Source: an uncultured Bacilli bacterium
GTDB lineage: Bacteria; Bacillota_I; Bacilli_A; RF39; UBA660
NCBI GenBank assembly: GCA_905235045.1
Contig: CAJOJO010000008.1
Span: 1 to 60,773 of the forward strand
Reading direction: 5' to 3'
Length of the DNA stretch: 60,773 bases
The position numbers were made by a program, and so were the translations under genes. The notes under the pieces were generated by a model. The model had not been told where the DNA came from and did no database searches. It saw nothing but the letters and a program-made list of their open reading frames with translations. Positions 1 to 60,773 of the stretch are shown here, one piece after another (the first letter of the stretch is position 1; every line of letters starts with the position of its first letter).

Positions 1-124
1 TAGCATCAAATTCATTATCACTTGGAGTATATGTTACATCTTTTGAATCTATTAATGTAGCTGCATAAACTACTCCTCCACTTATTAATAGACCAGTTAA
101 TAAACCAAATACATATTTTTTCAT
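1..124 (-). CDS. 5' end of a secreted/surface protein gene that runs off the window (N-terminal signal peptide MKKYVFGLLTGLLISGGVVYA)
   Basis: ATG at 124..122 sits downstream of an AGGGA RBS and the poly-G promoter module. The frame stays open to position 1. KK is followed by a hydrophobic h-region. Confidence 0.55.
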   Translation of the reverse strand, partial: MKKYVFGLLTGLLISGGVVYAATLIDSKDVTYTPSDNEFDA

Positions 125-147
125 TTAATCCCTACTCTCTATTTATA

Positions 148-178
148 ATTATACCCCCCCCCCGACATAAAAAGTCAA
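148..178 (-). promoter_or_regulatory. Sigma-A-type promoter P1 with a G10 tract in the spacer
   Basis: The minus strand reads TTGACT(178..173)-TTTTATGTC-GGGGGGGGGG-TATAAT(153..148), a 19-nt spacer, followed by leader TATAAATAGAGAGTAGGGATTAA-ATG. Confidence 0.6.
154..163 (-). repeat. Homopolymer tract, C10 on the plus strand (G10 on the coding strand)
   Basis: Counted directly in the sequence. Only two such G/C runs were noticed in the whole AT-rich window. Confidence 0.95.
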
Positions 179-7107: not shown

Positions 7108-7491
7108 TTAATCTTCATCTTCTATTTCACAACTGAAATCATCTGATAATTCGTATTTCCATTTTTTACCAGTTTTGGTTATATAGATTTCACTATCAAT
7201 GTCGATAATTTCTTTAGTAGCAGGGTTTTCAATTTCATCTTCAATATAACCACCCGTAATTAAGTCACCTAGGGTGATTGTTAATCTACCACCATCTTCA
7301 CTTGGTAGAGCAAATACATTATCAGCGCCATATGAACGAGCAGCTGCTAAAATATTATTCATTTGTGTTTCACATAATGATCCTTTATTTTGTCTTAATA
7401 TTTTTGATATTGCGGGAATTGTAATTAAACTTATTAAAGCAAGTACTACAATAACCCCAATTAATTCTGCTAAAGTAAATCCTTTTTTCAT
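7108..7491 (-). CDS. Type IV pilin-like / pseudopilin protein (prepilin N-terminal cleavage-methylation signal)
   Basis: 127 aa. MKKG|FTLAELIGVIVVLALISLI is the G-FTLxE class III signal plus a hydrophobic helix. Confidence 0.8.
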   Translation of the reverse strand: MKKGFTLAELIGVIVVLALISLITIPAISKILRQNKGSLCETQMNNILAAARSYGADNVFALPSEDGGRLTITLGDLITGGYIEDEIENPATKEIIDIDSEIYITKTGKKWKYELSDDFSCEIEDED

Positions 7492-7514
7492 ACAAACCCT
7501 ACTTTCTATTCATA

Positions 7515-7543
7515 ATAATACCACCTCCGAGCTATATTGTCAA
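7515..7543 (-). promoter_or_regulatory. Promoter P3, a paralogue of the poly-G module with an interrupted G tract
   Basis: The minus strand reads TTGACA(7543..7538)-ATATAGCTCGGAGGTGG-TATTAT(7520..7515), a 17-nt spacer, followed by leader TATGAATAGAAAGTAGGGTTTGT-ATG. Confidence 0.5.
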
Positions 7544-7790
7544 ATGGGAAAAGAAACATATTCACCTTCTATGTTTTAACAAAATTAATTCTTTCTTAAC
7601 ACTTTTAAATATATCCAATTAATACATAGTAAGTATTATACGTTTTATCTCGTGGTATTTCTTTTTTTCCAATTTATCAAAACATTCTTATAATAGTTTT
7701 ATTTCACTATCATATTCCAAAACCATATTATTTATATTTTTTGTTTCATTTTTACAATCTAGCAAAATTTATTGTAACTATCAAATAACA

Positions 7791-8810
7791 TTATTCATTT
7801 ATATCTATATGTAGATTTAATTCTTCTTCAGTTGGTAATTCTTTTAAGATATTATTAGGTAAATATTTTTTTAGTTCATATGAACTAACTCCAATAGGTT
7901 TATTAATATCTTTTAATGTATACTCGACTGAAAATTTATTTTTATTTTTACATAAAATAAGTCCAATTGAAGGATTATCGGTTTTACCTTTTAATAAATC
8001 ATCTACTGCTGATAAATAAAAATTCATTTTTCCAACATATTCTGGTTTAAATTTAGTATTTTTTAATTCTATTACAATATAACAATGTAATTTTATATGA
8101 TAAAATAACAAATCAATAAAGTAATCCTCATTATCTACTGTTATTCTATATTGATTCCCAACAAAACTAAAACCATTTCCAAGTGCTAACAAAGTCATTT
8201 TAATTTTATCTACCATAGCAGTTTCTAATTCTTTCTCTATATAATCTTTTCTTAAAGTTGTTATATCAAATATATATGGATCTTTCATAATTTCTTTTGC
8301 CATTTTACCTTGTGGATTTGGTAAGGTTTTATTAAAATTATTTAGCTTTTCAACTGATTTATATCTTGAATATGAATTATATTTAATCTCATCTAATAAA
8401 TCATAATATCCCCAACCATTTTTTGCAGTTTGATTTATATACCATATTCTCTTTTCATCATCTGTTACTTTATCAAAAATTAGAATATTATGTGACCAAG
8501 GAATTAGTGCAGAAGCCTTCTGCACTTTTTTATTATTTGAACAAACTAGATAATATTTTCGCATATTTTTAAGATTTCTAACCGAAAAACCTTTCATATT
8601 TGGATATGATATTTTTAATTCAATAGATAAATTATTAATAAAATTGTTTCCGTATTTTGAATTTTCAACTATAATTTGTCCAATATAAAAATATAAATTT
8701 AATAAATTCATATTAGCACTTTTAAATATTTCTAATTTTGTATTGTCTATCTTGCTTTTTATTTCACATATAATTTGTTTAAAATCCTTGTCTAATGTTT
8801 CTTTTACCAT
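7791..8810 (-). CDS. YhcG-like PDDEXK nuclease domain protein (DUF1016 family)
   Basis: 339 aa with a DUF1016-type N-terminal region and a C-terminal PDDEXK core (IDLLFYHIKLHCYIVIELK). It is a paralogue of the disrupted copy at 52391..53370. Confidence 0.8.
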   Translation of the reverse strand: MVKETLDKDFKQIICEIKSKIDNTKLEIFKSANMNLLNLYFYIGQIIVENSKYGNNFINNLSIELKISYPNMKGFSVRNLKNMRKYYLVCSNNKKVQKASALIPWSHNILIFDKVTDDEKRIWYINQTAKNGWGYYDLLDEIKYNSYSRYKSVEKLNNFNKTLPNPQGKMAKEIMKDPYIFDITTLRKDYIEKELETAMVDKIKMTLLALGNGFSFVGNQYRITVDNEDYFIDLLFYHIKLHCYIVIELKNTKFKPEYVGKMNFYLSAVDDLLKGKTDNPSIGLILCKNKNKFSVEYTLKDINKPIGVSSYELKKYLPNNILKELPTEEELNLHIDINE

Positions 8811-17808: not shown

Positions 17809-19701
17809 CTATTTAATAGATAACACATATTCTTTATCTAAAGTATAATGTTCATATCTCTTATTTAGTTTTACACTTGATGTTGGACTTGAGCCATCAT
17901 ATACAGTATCACTATATCTTACCCCAGTTACATTTAGAGATAATTTTTTATAGAAATCACCTTGATTGTTTTCAACAAGTTTACCAGTAACATATAAATA
18001 ACCACTATTTAATTCAAATATTGCATATAAATCACCAGTTGTATAATCTAGAAAATAATAACCAGGAGCTAATCTAGATGGATCATTTGTTTGATTCATC
18101 CTTCCAGCGAAACTTTTACCATCTGGTAAAGCACTGCTAATATTGAATGTATTAGAAGAATTTTTTTCATTAAATGATAAATCATCATAACCCCATGTTG
18201 ATATTTCTTTATATTGGATGATTGTAGTGATTTTCTTTGACGAAGTATCTAAAGATATTGAAGGCCTTACCCAATACCTTTGACCAGAATGGCTAACATA
18301 ACCATAAAGATATAAATCATCTTTTGGATATTCATATTCCCCAGCAGTAACTTTCACTGATTTAGCAGATACACCACCACTAGCACTTGTAACATAAGAA
18401 TAATAAGTTGATGATTTTAGTTCTTCTTGATTAGCATTAGTATATGTATTCAATACATAACCATCCGTTGTAAGTCCATAAACAGAAGTACTACCAGTCC
18501 CAGTATCATAATTCCATGAGTCACTTAATATGGTACTACTTGATGATATAGAATACGTAACAGCACCTGTTGTTTTATTTATTGACATATATCCTGGTAA
18601 AAGATAGTTTGTAGTTGTATAACCATTAGCACTTGTATTAAAACCTGTAAGCATTGTGTCAAAGTAAGCATAATGATTATTTACATCCTGAAAAGGTAAT
18701 TCATAAAAATTGCAATAATATACTGTAGAAGCACCAGCTGTAGTAGAACTATCACGATACATTACTGGATTAATATCTGTAGTTGTAACTAACTCCCACG
18801 CATTAGTACTTGCATTCCATTTAAATGTTTTAAGATAATAACGATAATCAGTTATTAAATCACTAGCATCATTCAGATAATAATACATAACACCTATCAC
18901 AGTTGGACTAAATCTAAATACAGGAAAAGGACTATTCCAACAGCCACCATTACTATATGTTATCTTTGCTGTATCTGTGCCTACTAAAAAGGTATCATAA
19001 GCATCCGAATTTAATTTTTTTATATCTATATACATAGTAAAATATTCCGCAGTTGCTGTTTTATAATCATATCTAAATTTCACTATATCGTTTGGAATAG
19101 TAACAGTATTTACTTTAAACATTGGTCCTGATGATATTGATTTAATACCAGTTGCTAACTCTTCAAATGATTTATTTTCATTTATTTCGTATCCTCTACT
19201 CTTAATAGCATTTGCTATCTTTTCTTTGCCAGTTATTATTTCTTCATTACAAGCATTTATATCTTCCACACATTTGTTTGTAACACTTATTATTCCATCA
19301 ACAGTAATGCCATCGCATATTCCATCTCCTATGGTAGCTTCTTTTTGATTTAATTCTTTTTTAGCATACCATTTCCCGTTATCAATACAAATTGCTGATT
19401 TATTATCTGTTGTGATTAACACCATACCATGCTCTATTGAACCTTTATAGCTTAATTTCTCATAATCATCTATTTGCTTTCCATTACTAAATTCTAATAA
19501 TCGATTATTTTCTGCATCTTGCATATTTATTTGATAATAATAATTAGCAGCTTCAGCAATCCCTTGCACACTTGCTTTTAAAGCACCTTTTTGAGCTTTT
19601 TCAATCACATCACTTATTAATGGTATTGATATTAATGTAACTATTGCTATCAATACTATTACCGCTAATAATTCAATTAACGTAAATCCTTTTTTCTTCA
19701 T
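17809..19701 (-). CDS. Large type IV pilin-like surface protein (prepilin signal plus ~520-aa Y/T/S-rich domain of unknown fold)
   Basis: 630 aa. MKKKG|FTLIELLAVIVLIAIVTLISIPL is the prepilin signal. No family was recognised for the remainder. Confidence 0.8.
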   Translation of the reverse strand: MKKKGFTLIELLAVIVLIAIVTLISIPLISDVIEKAQKGALKASVQGIAEAANYYYQINMQDAENNRLLEFSNGKQIDDYEKLSYKGSIEHGMVLITTDNKSAICIDNGKWYAKKELNQKEATIGDGICDGITVDGIISVTNKCVEDINACNEEIITGKEKIANAIKSRGYEINENKSFEELATGIKSISSGPMFKVNTVTIPNDIVKFRYDYKTATAEYFTMYIDIKKLNSDAYDTFLVGTDTAKITYSNGGCWNSPFPVFRFSPTVIGVMYYYLNDASDLITDYRYYLKTFKWNASTNAWELVTTTDINPVMYRDSSTTAGASTVYYCNFYELPFQDVNNHYAYFDTMLTGFNTSANGYTTTNYLLPGYMSINKTTGAVTYSISSSSTILSDSWNYDTGTGSTSVYGLTTDGYVLNTYTNANQEELKSSTYYSYVTSASGGVSAKSVKVTAGEYEYPKDDLYLYGYVSHSGQRYWVRPSISLDTSSKKITTIIQYKEISTWGYDDLSFNEKNSSNTFNISSALPDGKSFAGRMNQTNDPSRLAPGYYFLDYTTGDLYAIFELNSGYLYVTGKLVENNQGDFYKKLSLNVTGVRYSDTVYDGSSPTSSVKLNKRYEHYTLDKEYVLSIK

Positions 19702-19724
19702 ATAACTCCTACTTTCTACTTATA

Positions 19725-19754
19725 ATTATACCCCCCCCCGACAGGCCTTGTCAA
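19725..19754 (-). promoter_or_regulatory. Sigma-A-type promoter P2 with a G9 tract in the spacer
   Basis: The minus strand reads TTGACA(19754..19749)-AGGCCTGTC-GGGGGGGGG-TATAAT(19730..19725), an 18-nt spacer, followed by leader TATAAGTAGAAAGTAGGAGTTAT-ATG. Confidence 0.65.
19731..19739 (-). repeat. Homopolymer tract, C9 on the plus strand (G9 on the coding strand)
   Basis: Counted directly in the sequence. Confidence 0.95.
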
Positions 19755-20744: not shown

Positions 20745-21314
20745 TTAATTTTTTATTTTATAAAAACAGGAAATTACTTTAGCAAATTTATATAAAATAA
20801 TATTACTTTTATTTATAGCAAAACTTTTCCCCAAAGCTTTTCCACCAATAGTTAATGCCGCAATAATAGCCGAAATAACTAAAACCGTAAAAAATGCATC
20901 AAAGTGATAATGAGCGGATATATTAAGGGCAATTATAGAACCAGCGCCACCTGATATAATCCCACATACATCTCCTACTACGTCGTTACAAAAACTTGAT
21001 ACTAATGCCGCATTTTGTTTAAATTTTACAGCTATATCAGCTCCTTTTATTTTTCTTGAATTCATTGAATTAAAAGGAACAATATCAGCGGCTGTTACAG
21101 CAACCCCAATAATATCAAAGATAATACCAATAATAATAAAAATAACTAAAACAATTAAACCAATTATAATATTAACATTAGGAATAACTGATTCTGATAA
21201 CATACTAAATATAAAGGAAAGCATAAAAGCAGTTATCGTTATTTCAATAATCCATTTATAATTTGTAAATGCTGTTTTATCTTTTTCTAGTTGTTTTTTA
21301 AAAACCTTTTTCAT
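20745..21314 (-). CDS. 4-TM membrane protein, OapA-like (OLE-associated protein A candidate)
   Basis: 189 aa with four predicted TMs and a DVVGD (DxxxD) motif in TM3. It lies directly downstream of the large structured RNA. The OapA assignment is from memory of the family, not from a search. Confidence 0.55.
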   Translation of the reverse strand: MKKVFKKQLEKDKTAFTNYKWIIEITITAFMLSFIFSMLSESVIPNVNIIIGLIVLVIFIIIGIIFDIIGVAVTAADIVPFNSMNSRKIKGADIAVKFKQNAALVSSFCNDVVGDVCGIISGGAGSIIALNISAHYHFDAFFTVLVISAIIAALTIGGKALGKSFAINKSNIILYKFAKVISCFYKIKN

Positions 21315-21327
21315 AATTTTCTCCTAT

Positions 21328-21942
21328 AAAAAAAAGAAATAATTTCTTTTATAAATAATAATGGCGATTAATATAGTTAACTTTATGCCTTAGGTCAAGT
21401 AGAATTTCTCTAGTTTTTACTTATCGTTACCAATAAGCGGTTCCCCTTTAAAAAAACCAATATATTGTCACCAAATATATGACTTGATTACCACTTAGTA
21501 CATACTGCAATCCTACACTAACTCCACTCTAGGAATTTTCTTCAACAACTATTACTATTAGTTCTTTTTTGCAAATACAATTTCATATAGCAATAACAGT
21601 AATCATTTGGCCTAAATCATACTATCTGTCTATAATCCCAAGTATTCACGCAAGACAAGCTACGCTACTCATAAGTTGCCCCACGAAGTAGGTTTAATCC
21701 TAAATCGTCACAAGTCCATCAACTTACGTGTATAGGCTTATAACAAGTTCAGGTCTCCACGACAGTTGGGTCAGTATCGTATGCCATTACGGCCGCCCAA
21801 GTTGTCTTTCTTCCAGCACTCACCCTAAACTGGGCGTATAAAGCAAGCACCAGAAGCTTCACAGATGTGCTCTTTAATGGATTTTTAGCCCCATCTTCAT
21901 AGTAATTAAGTTGACTAGAATAATGTGCCATTACTTATTTAT
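21328..21942 (-). ncRNA. Large (~600 nt) structured non-coding RNA, OLE-like
   Basis: An 830-nt gap holds only a spurious 60-aa ORF. It has its own TTGACA-17-TATATT promoter. The core (about 21640..21900) is visibly GC-enriched against AT-rich surroundings. A 13-bp closing helix pairs 21940..21927 (AAAUAAGUAAUGGC) with 21365..21353 (GCCAUUAUUAUUU). Internal hairpins are present, e.g. GACAACTTGGG...CCCAACTGTC. A terminator lies at 21328..21351. Confidence 0.55.
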
Positions 21943-21948
21943 ATGTAA

Positions 21949-45907: not shown

Positions 45908-46360
45908 TTAGTCTTCTATACATGAACTATCTAATGAGTAGCCTTCTTTTTCTGTATCAAGATGTGAATCTGTTCCATCATAATTAATAATTGTGTCACT
46001 AATAATAAATTGTCCTTTTATAACTGAGTCATCTTTCATAATAACCCAACCTTCTTCTGGTAAGTCTCCTTTAGCAGCAGGAATTATTCTAGCGTCATCT
46101 GGATTAGCATAATTACCTTTTCGCATTATGATTCCATCTTCAACAATATAGCACCCATTTTTTAAAGGGGCTTTATCAAATTGTTCAGCAATAATTTGAT
46201 CTTCTAATGCTTTAACATAGTTTTTAACTGTTTCTAATTTACTACTATCCTTTGTTCCGTTAATTACCTTAACTAATTCTGGGATTGCTACTAAAGTTAG
46301 AACAGCGATTACAATAATAACTGCTAATAATTCAAATACTGTAAAACCTTTTTTCTTCAT
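45908..46360 (-). CDS. Type IV pilin-like protein
   Basis: 150 aa from the internal ATG with an AAGGAGG RBS. MKKKG|FTVFELLAVIIVIAVLTLVAIP is the prepilin signal. It starts 10 nt after the MBL gene stop. Confidence 0.8.
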   Translation of the reverse strand: MKKKGFTVFELLAVIIVIAVLTLVAIPELVKVINGTKDSSKLETVKNYVKALEDQIIAEQFDKAPLKNGCYIVEDGIIMRKGNYANPDDARIIPAAKGDLPEEGWVIMKDDSVIKGQFIISDTIINYDGTDSHLDTEKEGYSLDSSCIED

Positions 46361-52390: not shown

Positions 52391-53370
52391 TTAATTATCT
52401 TCTAAATCAATATACATATTTAAATCTTCTTCTGTTGGTAGATATTCTTTTAACTTAAATGAGCTTATTCCAATAGGTTTGTTTATATCTTTTAAAGCAT
52501 ATTGAGTTATAAATCTATTTTTATTTTTGCATAAAATTAAACCAATTGTAGGATTATCAGTCTTATCTTTTATTAAATCATCTACTGCAGATAAATAAAA
52601 ATTCATTTTACCAATATATTCAGGTTTGAATTCAGTTGCCTTTAATTCAACTACTATATAAGATTTTAATTTCAAATGATAAAATAGTAAATCGATAAAA
52701 TATTCATTTTCTCCAATTACTAATTTATATTGGCTACCAACAAAACTAAATCCATTACCAAATTCTAAAAGAACATTTTTAATTTTTTCTATCATTTTAT
52801 TTTCTAGCTGTTTTTCTTTATAATTATTATTTAAGGAAATAAAATATCTTTTAGGGTATTATTAATTAAATCACTATCAAGCTTTAATGACACGTCTTTA
52901 AAATTATTTATTGAATTTCCAATTCGTTTATAATAATTAGTTTTAATTTGTAAATCTAACATATTCCTACTCCATCCATTATCGATAGTTGCTTTAGCAT
53001 AAATTTCTCTTATATTTCTATCTTTTATTTTTTCCATTAATAATATGTTATGACCCCAAGGTAAATGTGCAACAAGTTGTTGCACTTTTTCATTATCATT
53101 ATATTCAATGTAAAATTTTTTCATATATTTTAAGTTTCTATCTGAAAATCCCTTCAAATTTGGATATTCTAGTTTTATAGCGCTAGAAACATTTTTTATA
53201 AAACTGTTACCATATTTACTATTTTCAGCTAGTATTTTACCAATTCTAAAATACATCATAATAAGATTTTTATTAACTTGTTGGACTGTATTTATTTGCG
53301 TTGTCTTAATTTCATTTTTAATACTAGCAACAACATGTTTAAAACTTTCACTAATTTTTTCTTCGATCAT
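52391..53370 (-). pseudogene. Frameshifted YhcG-like PDDEXK nuclease (second paralogue)
   Basis: ORFs 52831..53370 and 52391..52795 align colinearly with the intact 339-aa copy. The frame is lost near 52845 (..LKDILFP* where ..KDPYIFD.. is expected), and reading continues in another frame as YFISLNNNYKEKQLENKMIEK... Confidence 0.75.
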
Positions 53371-57435: not shown

Positions 57436-58461
57436 TTAAATTTTTTGAAATTTATTCTTTGGTACTGTTATAACTGGACGAATACCAACATCAGCAGTAT
57501 AAACACGTGTATCATTTAAACTACCATTAAAGCGTATATACCAAACAGTATACACATAGTTTTGAACAAGTCCTAATGGATCTTGTGTCCAATAACCACC
57601 ATTTGTTGAATCAGATGAAGCAATTTCACAACCATTTGAAACACAATCATATGTATAATCATATAACCATGAATATGCACTTGATCCTTTACTAGTAGCT
57701 CTTTGCGTAGTCGTTAGACTATCAAAATAGTATCCACTATTTACATCAGTTATATCAAATTCTGTTCTACCTATTATTTTATTTAACTCAGATGTTGTTA
57801 TGAGCGTTGTTCCTAGGCTGGAATCCCAATTTAAATTTTGTATTGCTTCATAAGCACCACTTAATTCATACGCCACATTTGTATTTGATGAATTCCATGC
57901 AATACTATTTTCTGTATTATGATCTAGTATCATTTTATAGTTGTCTCCACTATTATCAAATATATACCATTTCATACATCCACTTGTACCTGATCCTACT
58001 GTTGAATTTTCTTCATCACATACTTCATCTATATCACTAGGATTAAAATAAGCAATTCCCTTAACACCTTTTTGTTTAACGTTATTAGATGAATATATAT
58101 CTTTCAAATCAACTATGGATCTATCTGGACATTCTACAATTCGATAACTATTTGTATTTCCTATTTTAACTTCAATACACTTATCAATATATTTACTTAC
58201 ATCTATAGGTATTAAACCTTCTTTATCGATATCAGATATTAAAATATCATATATGACACCAATTTGTTTATCATAGTCATTACCATATCTTTCCATATAT
58301 TGATCAGCTGAACTATATAATATATCTTTAGTTGCTTGATCCACTTCTACTTCTTTTTTTTCAAAATTAGATATTAAGTTTGGAAAAATAAGAATTGCTA
58401 AAAAACTTAATAAAAGAATAATTGCTAATAATTCTATTAAAGTAAATCCTTTATTCTTCAT
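57436..58461 (-). CDS. Type IV pilin-like surface protein with a ~290-aa C-terminal domain
   Basis: 341 aa. MKNKG|FTLIELLAIILLLSFLAILIFP is the prepilin signal. It lies immediately downstream of the glycine-rich protein gene. Confidence 0.8.
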   Translation of the reverse strand: MKNKGFTLIELLAIILLLSFLAILIFPNLISNFEKKEVEVDQATKDILYSSADQYMERYGNDYDKQIGVIYDILISDIDKEGLIPIDVSKYIDKCIEVKIGNTNSYRIVECPDRSIVDLKDIYSSNNVKQKGVKGIAYFNPSDIDEVCDEENSTVGSGTSGCMKWYIFDNSGDNYKMILDHNTENSIAWNSSNTNVAYELSGAYEAIQNLNWDSSLGTTLITTSELNKIIGRTEFDITDVNSGYYFDSLTTTQRATSKGSSAYSWLYDYTYDCVSNGCEIASSDSTNGGYWTQDPLGLVQNYVYTVWYIRFNGSLNDTRVYTADVGIRPVITVPKNKFQKI

Positions 58462-58504: not shown

Positions 58505-58528
58505 AATAAAAAGAGCTAAAAGCTCTTT
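58505..58528 (-). terminator. Intrinsic terminator after the glycine-rich protein gene
   Basis: The minus strand reads AAGAGCT-TTT-AGCTCTT-TTTATTT. Confidence 0.65.
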
Positions 58529-60773
58529 TAATTTCCTATATATGTTATTTTAGCATAGCCATTAGCATAGCCATTACCATCATTACCAGCTTGTTCTGTA
58601 CCATATAATGGATGATTTACACCAATATACGTACCTTTTGATGTTGTCCACTTATAACCTGTTCCATCTACCATTTTTGTGTTAGTAAATTTATAGCCTG
58701 TATATGATATAGAATCTGATCTTTGTGATAAATCATAATTAACTGCCACACATCCATCATGACCAGATATATATGAAGAACCTCCTGATGCTTGCCCACC
58801 AGCATAGGCACCGCCAGCTCCACCATACCAGCCAGAACCTCCACCAGGATTATCATATGATTGATATGATGCTCCACCATATCCAAAACCACCTGGAGTA
58901 GCCGGATATGAAGCCCCTGAATTTATTGACTTACCACCAGTTGTCTGAGTAGCTACTGAAGCAGCATATGCAGCTGAACTTGAACCAGTTTCACCAACAT
59001 AACTTTCTAATCCTCCGGCTGCGCCACCTTTACTTGCCCAAGCAGAACCTGAGTGTTGAGCAGCTCCAGAGCCAGCTCCAGCTACCATTATTCTTGTTTT
59101 TAAAGACTCGATTTCATTCCATATTTCATTAGATGAAGTAGAGGATATTCTTACATCAGTAGCTCCGCCACCTGAAGTTGAATTACCGTTACCAATAGCA
59201 CCGCCATTCCATCCTGGTGTCTTAGTTGCGCCGCCTTGACCTCCTACATAAATATATAATGTTTGGCCTTTATTAACATTCATTTCACCACTTGTGTAAG
59301 CTCCATTACCACCTATATAAGTTGTACTGTAGTCTCCTCCGGAAGCTCCCCACAATTCAAATTTATATTTTCCCGTATATGGTGCGGTAAATGTTTGATA
59401 TGTTCCCGTTAATTGATAACGCCATACTTTATGCTTTTGAAAATATAAATCATCATATTGTTCATTAGTATATGTAGCAAATTTACTAAATGTGATTCTT
59501 GCATAACCATTTCCATCATTACCAACAGTTGGTGAACCACTACTATAAGATGGAGTACCCATATAAATCCCTTTTATTGTAGTCCAATTATATCCTTGAC
59601 CATCTATCATAATCGTATTTATAAAATATTTTCCAGTAAATGATTTACTTGTCCCATTTAAGTCATATGGATAAATGCATCCATCGTGACCAGAAATATA
59701 TGAAGAACCTCCTGATGCTTGTCCGCCAGCATAAGCGCCACCAGCACCACCAAACCAACCAGATCCTCCGCCAGGATTATCATATGATTGATACGATGCG
59801 CCACCATATCCAAAGCCACCTGGAGTAGCCGGATATGAAGCTCCTGAATTTATTGACTTACCACCAGCTATTTGCGTAGCTACTGAAGCAGCATATGCAG
59901 CTGAACTTGAACCAGTTTCACCAGCATAACTTTCTAATCCTCCGGCTGCGCCACCTTTACTTGCCCAAGCAGAACCTGAGTGTTGAGCAGCTCCGGAACC
60001 AGCTCCAGCTACCATTATTCTTGATTTTAAACTTTCTATTTCATTCCATACTGTAGGAGAAGCAGTGTGAATAGTTCTTACATCAGTAGCCCCGCCACCT
60101 GATGATGAATTACCATTACCAATTGCGCCACCATTCCAGCCTGGTGTTTTAGTCGCACCACCTTCACCACCTACATATACATATATTTCTTCATCAACAT
60201 TTAAATAAATATCACCTTTTGTATAGGCACCATTACCACCTACATATGTAGCGTTATAATCGCCACCTGAGGCTCCCCATAATTCTATTGTATAATATCC
60301 TGAGTAAGGAGCCGTAAAAGTTTTATATTCACCACTATAATCAAAATCCCATACGTATGAATCTCGAATATAGCTTAATTGAACCCATTCATTATTATAT
60401 ACATAAGCTTCTTTTAGTTGCCAATCACCACTCAAGTATTGAACAGCATAACCAATTCCTATTTTTGATTTTTTGTTTTCAACAACGTTTGTTGTTTCAC
60501 TACTTTGTACTAGCCAAACCATTCCTTCTTTTAATTCAGTGGGAGGTAGTTGTGATGAAGAAACATAATAATCAGTTATTTTATCATTTGTTATAACAGC
60601 TATTGTTCCTGCGTTTGATTTGTTTGGTAAATCAGCAGTTGTTGCATAAGCTTTTACATTTAATCTTAGACCAGTATATGATGCATTACCAATCGTAACA
60701 TATCCTAGTAATTCTTCGTCATATTCACCAGAACATACTCCTTCATCTAATTCTAACTCTTTACTATCTAAGT
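58528..60773 (-). CDS. Large glycine-rich surface protein with two tandem ALK/LTK-GRD-like (Pfam Gly_rich type) domains; the 5' end lies outside the window
   Basis: The frame is open from 60773 down to the stop at 58528, whereas the ORF track starts only at an internal Met. Each ~309-aa unit reads FTAPYSGYYTIELWGASGGD...GGNGAYT...VYVGGEGG...GWNGG...GGGATDVR...AGAGSG... Confidence 0.8.
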   Translation of the reverse strand, partial: LDSKELELDEGVCSGEYDEELLGYVTIGNASYTGLRLNVKAYATTADLPNKSNAGTIAVITNDKITDYYVSSSQLPPTELKEGMVWLVQSSETTNVVENKKSKIGIGYAVQYLSGDWQLKEAYVYNNEWVQLSYIRDSYVWDFDYSGEYKTFTAPYSGYYTIELWGASGGDYNATYVGGNGAYTKGDIYLNVDEEIYVYVGGEGGATKTPGWNGGAIGNGNSSSGGGATDVRTIHTASPTVWNEIESLKSRIMVAGAGSGAAQHSGSAWASKGGAAGGLESYAGETGSSSAAYAASVATQIAGGKSINSGASYPATPGGFGYGGASYQSYDNPGGGSGWFGGAGGAYAGGQASGGSSYISGHDGCIYPYDLNGTSKSFTGKYFINTIMIDGQGYNWTTIKGIYMGTPSYSSGSPTVGNDGNGYARITFSKFATYTNEQYDDLYFQKHKVWRYQLTGTYQTFTAPYTGKYKFELWGASGGDYSTTYIGGNGAYTSGEMNVNKGQTLYIYVGGQGGATKTPGWNGGAIGNGNSTSGGGATDVRISSTSSNEIWNEIESLKTRIMVAGAGSGAAQHSGSAWASKGGAAGGLESYVGETGSSSAAYAASVATQTTGGKSINSGASYPATPGGFGYGGASYQSYDNPGGGSGWYGGAGGAYAGGQASGGSSYISGHDGCVAVNYDLSQRSDSISYTGYKFTNTKMVDGTGYKWTTSKGTYIGVNHPLYGTEQAGNDGNGYANGYAKITYIGN
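58560..60413 (-). repeat. Intragenic tandem duplication, 2 x 927 bp
   Basis: The constant offset is 927 nt (e.g. 58751 vs 59678, 58949 vs 59876, 59114 vs 60041). There is one mismatch in ~118 nt over 58949..59066 vs 59876..59993, and the remainder is clearly more diverged. Confidence 0.85.

Follow-up and report, generated by a model that had tools for sequence, protein, structure and literature searches.

Can a run of guanines between the two hexamers of a promoter act as a switch for surface proteins in an uncultured gut bacterium? The question is raised by a 60,773-nucleotide (nt) stretch of DNA from an uncultured member of the Bacilli, the whole of which is called the window here. It contains three copies of a promoter-leader module of about 55 nt, P1, P2 and P3, which all lie on the minus strand and follow the plan TTGAC(A/T)–spacer–TAT(A/T)AT–23 nt–ATG. 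P1 and P2 carry a pure G tract in the spacer, and in P3 the tract is interrupted. Phase variation, in which tract length sets promoter strength as in the porA, opc and vlp systems of other bacteria, is the explanation that we favor for P1 and P2, and we hold it to be probable rather than secure. The window is chromosomal and derives from a spore-forming Bacillota of very low guanine-cytosine (GC) content, with genes for CotE, YabP/YqfD, and SpoIID-like and SpoVS-like proteins. Contigs nearly identical to it are present in an NCBI metagenome-assembled genome (MAG) and in several assemblies from ENA and Logan, and the sample labels of gut metagenome assemblies suggest the chicken caecum as the source.

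An initial annotation of this DNA had quoted the three copies of the module, and they are present exactly as quoted, with a G10 tract in P1, a G9 tract in P2 and an interrupted tract in P3 (Table 1). The spacer between the -35 and -10 hexamers measures 19 nt in P1, 18 nt in P2 and 17 nt in P3, and the distance from the -10 hexamer to the start codon is 23 nt in all three. P1 reads TTGACT-9 nt-G10-TATAAT and P2 TTGACA-9 nt-G9-TATAAT, each with a mononucleotide tract of at least about 8 nt between the hexamers. The corresponding P3 stretch, GGAGGTGG, has G at six of its eight positions, at the place homologous to the tract and in a genome with about 13% G. The block specific to the module can be written as (T/C)(G/C)TC-G(n)-TAT(A/T)AT-TAT(A/G)A(A/G)TAGA(A/G)AGTAGG, with a fixed 23 nt to the ATG.

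The G10 and G9 tracts are the sole G/C runs of 6 or more in the window, which has a GC content of 26.8%; by our own estimate, about 0.002 runs of 9 or more would be expected there by chance. A 23-nt core pattern of the module has three matches, compared with 0.01 expected from shuffled sequence. An nhmmer profile recovers the same three sites alone (E 1e-12 to 1e-15; next best E 0.86), although it was built including these three copies and is informative solely for the lack of further ones. A promoter scan of the first 20 kb returned P2 as the only 12/12 match to the sigma-70-type consensus and P3 as an 11/12 match with an additional TG extended -10 element, while P1, with its 19-nt spacer, falls outside the scanner's limit of 16-18 nt.

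To judge by their signal peptides, the genes behind P1, P2 and P3 all encode surface-exposed or secreted types of product, none of which has a lipobox. The P2 and P3 products carry canonical class III signal peptides, MKK(K)G-FTL(A/I)E followed by a hydrophobic tract, and so conform to the type IV pilin pattern of a short hydrophilic leader with a final Gly, Phe at +1, Glu at +5 and about 21 hydrophobic residues. P3 drives a gene for a 127-amino-acid (aa) pilin-like protein, as the initial annotation had it, and this protein begins with MKKG-FTLAELIGVIVVLALISLITIP (MKKG-FTLAE...); the 630-aa protein behind P2 begins with MKKKG-FTLIELLAVIVLIAIVTLISIP. Both exceed the TIGR02532 cutoff of 16.3 (19.8 bits for the 127-aa and 26.9 bits for the 630-aa protein). 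For PF07963, with a cutoff of 21.2, the 630-aa protein scores 27.7 bits and the 127-aa protein 18.4, below the cutoff. An AlphaFold2 (AF2) model of the 127-aa protein (mean predicted local distance difference score, pLDDT, 84.5) folds residues 7-57 into an N-terminal helix of 51 residues, after which three short strands form a small beta head. A Foldseek search of this model against the PDB gave nothing significant, the best match being the C. difficile minor pilin PilW at E 1.6. About 90 orthologues of the protein were found.

At its N-terminus, the 630-aa protein has a sequence match to solved pilins (E 2e-4). Only its first ~130 aa are common to a family of at least 647 proteins from MAGs of uncultured Bacilli/"Tenericutes", whose C-terminal domains include BspA-LRR, FN3, Gly-rich, DUF1566 and others. 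Its own C-terminal part has no Pfam match and no known domain. This architecture identifies it, as far as sequence goes, as a modular pilin in the sense of PMC8179133. Contigs L012, L013 and L014 from other assemblies are identical to the window at 626 of 630 nt over the start of the gene and then end, and these ends coincide with the start of its C-terminal module (window ~17809-19071); other contigs stop 100-150 nt into the P1 gene. The breaks suggest that several alleles of the variable parts co-exist, and because of those at the C-terminal module the targets look like strain-variable surface proteins. The 150-aa gene that follows is probably co-transcribed from P2, and the 630-aa/150-aa gene pair is kept in L015 and in L016/L017.

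The P1 gene, cut by the window start, is complete in L102, a 47-kb contig of another assembly, where its product has 158 aa and a Sec-type signal peptide, recognized by eye, and where a terminator of its own follows. The protein matches no Pfam family above threshold and shows a weak hint of an H-type lectin. A motif at its N-terminus is shared with phage proteins whose function is unknown (phrog_7154, E 8e-5); a homology search with the 50-aa N-terminus and a PDB sequence search with the full protein returned nothing. Neither a prepilin peptidase nor pilus assembly machinery was recognized by eye among the translations of the window's open reading frames (ORFs), only a minority of which were compared with family libraries.

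Some observations concern the surroundings of P1 and P3. A terminator-like 13-bp inverted repeat at 169-201 (AAAAAGTCAATG...CATTGACTTTTT) holds the P1 -35 hexamer in its 3' arm, so that terminator and promoter overlap; the repeat is absent at the P1 homologue on the human-gut contig L104. It follows a small minus-strand ORF (201-527) that lies between pnp and P1 and encodes a phage MuF C-terminal domain (PF18819, E 5e-11). This ORF has 108 aa in the window and 120 aa in other assemblies, and may be the remnant of a mobile element. A hairpin between the G tract of P1 and an upstream C-rich stretch was considered and dropped, as it has four pairs only and is absent in P2. Directly upstream of P3 lies an intact gene for a 339-aa YhcG/DUF1016 PDDEXK nuclease (7791-8810). 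A second copy of this gene at 52391-53370 is split into ORFs of 179 and 134 aa and is probably a pseudogene.

The strongest new evidence is the comparison of modules across species. On L104, a contig of 22% GC from the gut of Hadza people, the sequence TTGACT-TTTACGTCT-G10-TATGAT-23 nt-ATG stands before a homologue of the P1 protein. L104 belongs to a different species, in which the orthologue of the P3 pilin is just 58% identical. Its module is 83% identical to that of P1 and has the same 19-nt spacer and the same 9-nt pre-tract, whereas the two proteins are 37% identical over 54 aa. Conservation of the module despite this divergence of the proteins argues for selection on the tract or for recent transfer of the module. 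That a P1-type module precedes a homologous gene in another species, and that poly-G promoters recur before pilins, speaks against a merely coincidental similarity of the three leaders.

Poly-G promoters of this kind occur in further organisms. L029, from a human-gut relative, has TTGACA-8 nt-G11-TATACT, again with a 19-nt spacer, before a modular pilin homologous to the tract-less 341-aa gene of the window. In L018, L019 and L022, a G9 precedes pilin genes by about 48-64 nt. A -35/-10 pair can be drawn in L022 (TTGCTA-18-TATTTT), which probably represents a poly-G spacer promoter before a pilin gene; L018 and L019 offer no convincing pair. Two IMG/VR contigs of ~36% GC (L114:9885-9925 and L118:13061-13100) read TTGACA-9 nt-G10-TATAAT, with an ATG after 5-6 nt that opens a prepilin-type sequence, MKKHKHYQGFTIIEVV... 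In this unrelated organism, a poly-G spacer promoter stands before a pilin gene that is nearly leaderless; the same scan also found poly-G spacers in the consensus promoters of viral contigs with higher GC. Throughout 318 kb of partly redundant low-GC loci, G/C runs of 8 or more are without exception sense-strand poly-G tracts, each 23-64 nt ahead of the start codon of a gene for a prepilin or a signal-peptide protein. At pilin-homologue loci below 36% GC on metagenome contigs, runs of 7 or more number 2 in 5,051 nt of upstream sequence versus 0 in 80,202 nt elsewhere.

Not every orthologous promoter has a tract. L015, which carries the P2-gene orthologue of a related strain, has the module with an ordinary 17-nt spacer and no tract, and its leader is identical to that of P1 over 25 nt. 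The P3-gene orthologue in L103 has an A-rich 18-nt spacer with no pure tract, and the one in L104 has no promoter of its own, TAGAAAGTAGG being kept there as an operon-internal ribosome-binding site. Since the promoters of L015 and L103 exist without it, the tract is dispensable for promoter function and is gained or lost; tracts thus come and go on a conserved promoter scaffold. The strict pattern G7..ATAAT..TAGARAGTAGG has no match in the JGI metagenome contigs and IMG/VR, and the source organism is apparently absent from these collections. Among 185k GTDB species genomes, the core pattern has one match, L008, a relative with the same -10 and leader but no tract, ahead of a gene for a non-surface protein.

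How much of the similarity between the copies calls for a special explanation? One reading is that it reflects gene duplication together with generic consensus signals, that the tracts are neutral by-products of slippage, and that the module has no special role. Several findings agree with this. P2 and P3 resemble each other beyond the module, downstream in the coding N-terminus and upstream in the T-rich sequence before the -35 hexamer, and their sequences indicate paralogy rather than a portable cassette. AGTAGG[T/A]G-type ribosome-binding sites precede ~7 of 57 genes in the window, the -10 and leader recur before the non-surface gene of L008, and the leader element serves inside an operon in L104. 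Because the -35, -10 and AGTAGG signals are generic here, the shuffle statistics overstate how much similarity requires common descent. Against this stands the pair P1 and P2, which has the block GTC-G(n)-TATAAT-TATAA-TAGA-AGTAGG in common without coding similarity, and the 25-nt leader identity between L015 and P1 suggests that the leader was exchanged or is strongly constrained. At 22-27% GC, a neutral G10 would be expected to decay fast, yet it is pure in two species, and in the low-GC loci fetched the tracts are strictly tied to genes for surface or secreted proteins. We consider a purely neutral origin improbable. The description of the module in the initial annotation, as a portable cassette before unrelated surface-protein genes, nevertheless needs correction: it fails for P2 and P3, both prepilin-type and paralogous, and P1 is the only copy that shares promoter and leader alone.

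The shared leader, for its part, is present in all three copies and is essentially a common ribosome-binding site. With a transcription start ~7 nt past the -10 hexamer, the 5' untranslated region would comprise ~16 nt before the ATG, most of them belonging to that site, and the idea of a regulatory leader was dropped for this reason. An Rfam scan of the whole window shows no RNA family at or near the modules. TAGAAAGTAGG also lies 6-7 nt before the ATG of pilin genes in other contigs (L104:1475-1503; L027, L023), across species as distant as 58% protein identity. It is kept even where the pilin gene has no promoter of its own, is found ahead of the non-pilin gene in L008 as well, and may be a favored translation-initiation region in this clade.

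The architecture of P1 and P2 suggests how a switch would operate. Both would be sigma-A-type promoters, with poly-G occupying the spacer's 3' half right up to the -10 hexamer. Slipped-strand mispairing during replication would add or remove one G and move the spacer among 17, 18 and 19 nt. Each such change would alter promoter strength heritably and reversibly, so that each gene would be switched or graded stochastically, as at a contingency locus. The location of the tracts between consensus boxes and the single-nucleotide steps of 17, 18 and 19 nt between the copies count in favor of this mechanism. The products affected would be the 630-aa modular pilin with the downstream 150-aa protein, and the 158-aa signal-peptide protein. 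The initial annotation spoke of a regulon; we find no evidence for a shared regulator, and a set of independently switchable contingency promoters should be the better term.

P3, in this mechanism, would be a paralogous promoter that does not slip, with an interrupted 8-mer and an optimal 17-nt spacer, and would be constitutively competent. The T among its two interrupting bases creates a TGn extended -10 element that would compensate for TATTAT. The combination of TTGACA, 17 nt and TGn with TATTAT indeed has the appearance of a strong promoter fixed in that state, as had been proposed, and the segment from the -35 to the -10 hexamer is identical in all other assemblies recovered (L002-L007, L009 and L010); the leader differs at a single position (A/G). 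The tract had also been called decayed. It is interrupted, and decay is plausible, given six G in eight positions and AT-biased mutation, but the orthologues in L103 and L104 have no pure tract either, and the change could have run in the other direction.

Assemblies of the same loci allow the state of the tracts to be compared. The window, L102, L009 and L010 all have G10 at P1, and P2 has G9 in the window and in four of four other contigs, one strain having a slightly different leader that is 1 nt shorter; L018 and L019 both have G9. Poly-G runs could be sequencing or assembly artefacts, for example poly-G calls of two-color Illumina chemistry, and several contigs do end near these loci. The tracts are, however, internal to long contigs, have conserved sequence on both sides that keeps register with the -35 and -10 boxes, and are reproduced across pipelines, studies and hosts. 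Conserved flanks and independent reproduction effectively refute an artefact, to which we attach almost no probability.

Several points weigh against a switch. No polymorphism of tract length is seen among the 3-4 assemblies per locus; with so few assemblies, some of which may come from the same read sets and all of which give the majority state only, this is weak negative evidence on switching. The comparison of tract states that the initial annotation had proposed gave no sign of switching. The sole variation at a tract is found at P1 in L009 (11894-11910) and L010, where a T is deleted at the junction between tract and -10 hexamer (window 148-163), giving G10+ATAAT. This deletion turns TTGACT-19-TATAAT into TTGACT-18-GATAAT and is not tract slippage. 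The assembled spacers of nearly all tract-bearing promoters, moreover, measure 18-19 nt, which is nominally suboptimal. Either an OFF or low state is the usual one, or the G tract shifts the optimum, and the recurrent 19-nt state might reflect such a shift. Finally, a homopolymer beside a -10 hexamer need not be a switch, a counterexample being the T tract in the vpma promoter of M. agalactiae (PMC2268961).

An alternative is that the G tract is a static element, such as a rigid A-form-like spacer, a G at -14 acting as part of an extended -10, or the site of an unknown regulator, with the genes under conventional control. The invariance of tract length in all assemblies of each locus fits such an element, and the vpma T tract supplies a precedent. 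P1, L104 and L114/L118 all combine G10 with a 19-nt spacer, a length that the spacer of L029 has as well, and 19 nt with a G tract could be a selected functional state rather than OFF. Orthologues in L015 and L103, on the other hand, use ordinary A/T-rich spacers of 17-18 nt, tract length varies among paralogues and homologues (G9, G10 and G11), and no conserved motif beyond the tract hints at a regulator site. A mononucleotide run of 9-11 nt is also intrinsically mutable in every bacterium studied. We regard a static tract as unlikely and continue to favor slippage-driven variation of promoter strength.

A wider version of that proposal is more tentative, and we are inclined to doubt it. Low-GC spore-forming gut Bacilli of chicken and human might possess a genome-wide phasome, in which many modular pilins and small secreted proteins are independently switched by poly-G, giving combinatorial surface variation of the Vlp kind, and in which the module spreads by recombination. 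At least three further prepilin-type genes of the window stand without a visible module (45908-46360, 57436-58461 and 58528 to the window end; Table 1).

Table 1. Positions of the promoter modules and of the pilin-like and associated genes in the window
Feature	Position	Strand	Remarks
P1 promoter module	122-178	-	TTGACT 178-173; spacer 172-154, 19 nt, TTTTATGTC+G10 (163-154)
P1 module, 3' part	153-122	-	TATAAT 153-148; leader 147-125, 23 nt, with AGTAGGG ribosome-binding site; ATG 124-122
P1 gene, 5' end	1..124	-	41 codons, cut by window start; full gene in L102:6404-6880
P3 promoter module	7489-7543	-	TTGACA 7543-7538; spacer 7537-7521, 17 nt, ATATAGCTC+GGAGGTGG (7528-7521)
P3 module, 3' part	7520-7489	-	TATTAT 7520-7515; leader 7514-7492, 23 nt; ATG 7491-7489
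P3 gene, 127-aa type IV prepilin-type protein	7108..7491	-	monocistronic, between YhcG-type nuclease and SpoU methylase genes
P2 promoter module	19699-19754	-	TTGACA 19754-19749; spacer 19748-19731, 18 nt, AGGCCTGTC+G9 (19739-19731)
P2 module, 3' part	19730-19699	-	TATAAT 19730-19725; leader 19724-19702, 23 nt; ATG 19701-19699
P2 gene, 630-aa modular type IV pilin-like protein	17809..19701	-	~130-aa N-terminal pilin module and ~500-aa strain-variable C-terminal part
150-aa protein with N-terminal hydrophobic (membrane-anchor-like) segment	17347..17799	-	starts 9 nt after the 630-aa gene
150-aa prepilin-type gene	45908..46360	-	no own promoter; AAGGAGG ribosome-binding site; overlaps upstream gene
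341-aa modular pilin-like gene	57436..58461	-	ordinary promoter TTTACA-17-TAAAAT, no tract
Glycine-rich modular pilin-like gene	58528..60773	-	start past window end, promoter not visible; PF12810-type, judged from homologues P0004/P0006

Two other parts of the window deserve mention. Between 14103 and 14493, a gene-free interval of 390 nt has terminator-like hairpins and a promoter, TTGACT-17-TATAAT (14467-14439, minus strand), that ranks second among the consensus promoters of the first 20 kb. The interval has no Rfam match and may hold a small RNA or a leader not yet described. On the minus strand at 21345-21947 lies an OLE (Ornate Large Extremophilic) RNA of full length, which matches RF01071 with 392.5 bits over model positions 1-616. 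Immediately downstream is a gene for a 189-aa membrane protein (20745-21314, minus strand), at the position where oapA usually lies. The occurrence of OLE in an uncultured spore former of 27% GC, apparently from the chicken gut, is worth recording.

Among known systems, porA (poly-G) and opc (poly-C) of Neisseria meningitidis are controlled transcriptionally by the length of a spacer tract, as cited in PMC5084427 (van der Ende 1995, Sarkari 1994). The window promoters resemble them in having a homopolymeric G/C tract between the -35 and -10 hexamers of a surface-protein gene, where changes of 1 nt alter the spacing; switching in the window is proposed by analogy. They differ in that the organism is an uncultured spore-forming gut Bacillota of 22-27% GC, that the targets are type IV pilin-like or small secreted proteins rather than outer-membrane porins, and that several genes have one homologous promoter/leader block.

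In the latter respect the closest analogue is the vlp family, with its repeated 5' block and a host lineage derived from Bacillota. Several vlp genes have a highly conserved 5' block of promoter, leader and signal sequence before divergent coding regions. Spacer insertions and deletions switch the transcription of variable surface-protein genes in Mycoplasma, namely vlp in M. hyorhinis, maa2 in M. arthritidis and vmm in M. mycoides (PMC2268961). The vlp tract is poly-A (TA repeats in vmm), and its genes encode lipoproteins in a tandem cluster, whereas the tracts described here are poly-G, the products have prepilin or Sec signal peptides without a lipobox, and the copies are dispersed (at ~0.1, 7.5 and 19.7 kb) among housekeeping and sporulation genes. 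The system would work like Vlp without being a member of the Vlp family.

Promoter tracts are also known from fimbriae. In Bordetella pertussis, the poly-C tracts of fim2 and fim3 set the distance between the BvgA site and the -10 element, and in Haemophilus influenzae, TA repeats lie in the overlapping divergent promoters of hifA and hifB; both alter the spacing of promoter elements and switch subunit genes. These are Gram-negative fimbriae of the chaperone-usher type and not type IV pilins.

Modular type IV pilins such as PilB and PilC of Streptococcus sanguinis combine a pilin module with an extra C-terminal module and are described as widespread and very diverse (PMC8179133). The 630-aa P2 product and its at least 647 homologues fit this architecture. 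Points of difference are that the text consulted describes no phase-variable promoter for such pilins (PMC8179133) and that no known domain is matched in the C-terminal module of the 630-aa protein. A literature search of partial coverage found no description of repeat-tract promoters for pilins of Gram-positive or spore-forming gut commensals, and the layout of a poly-G promoter switch is apparently undescribed in this kind of gut bacterium. Its signature, TTGAC-N8-9-G(8-11)-TATNAT before prepilin genes, can be mined and is directly testable in existing read sets.

Repeat-tract phase variation has been worked out almost entirely in pathogens, namely Neisseria, Haemophilus, Campylobacter, Helicobacter and Mycoplasma, and the switches documented in gut commensals are mostly invertible promoters and methylation. 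If the mechanism proposed here is true, abundant uncultured gut Bacillota use contingency loci in the style of these pathogens to vary pilin-borne adhesins, which would bear on colonization, on the evasion of immunoglobulin A and phages, and on how strain-level heterogeneity in metagenomes is read.

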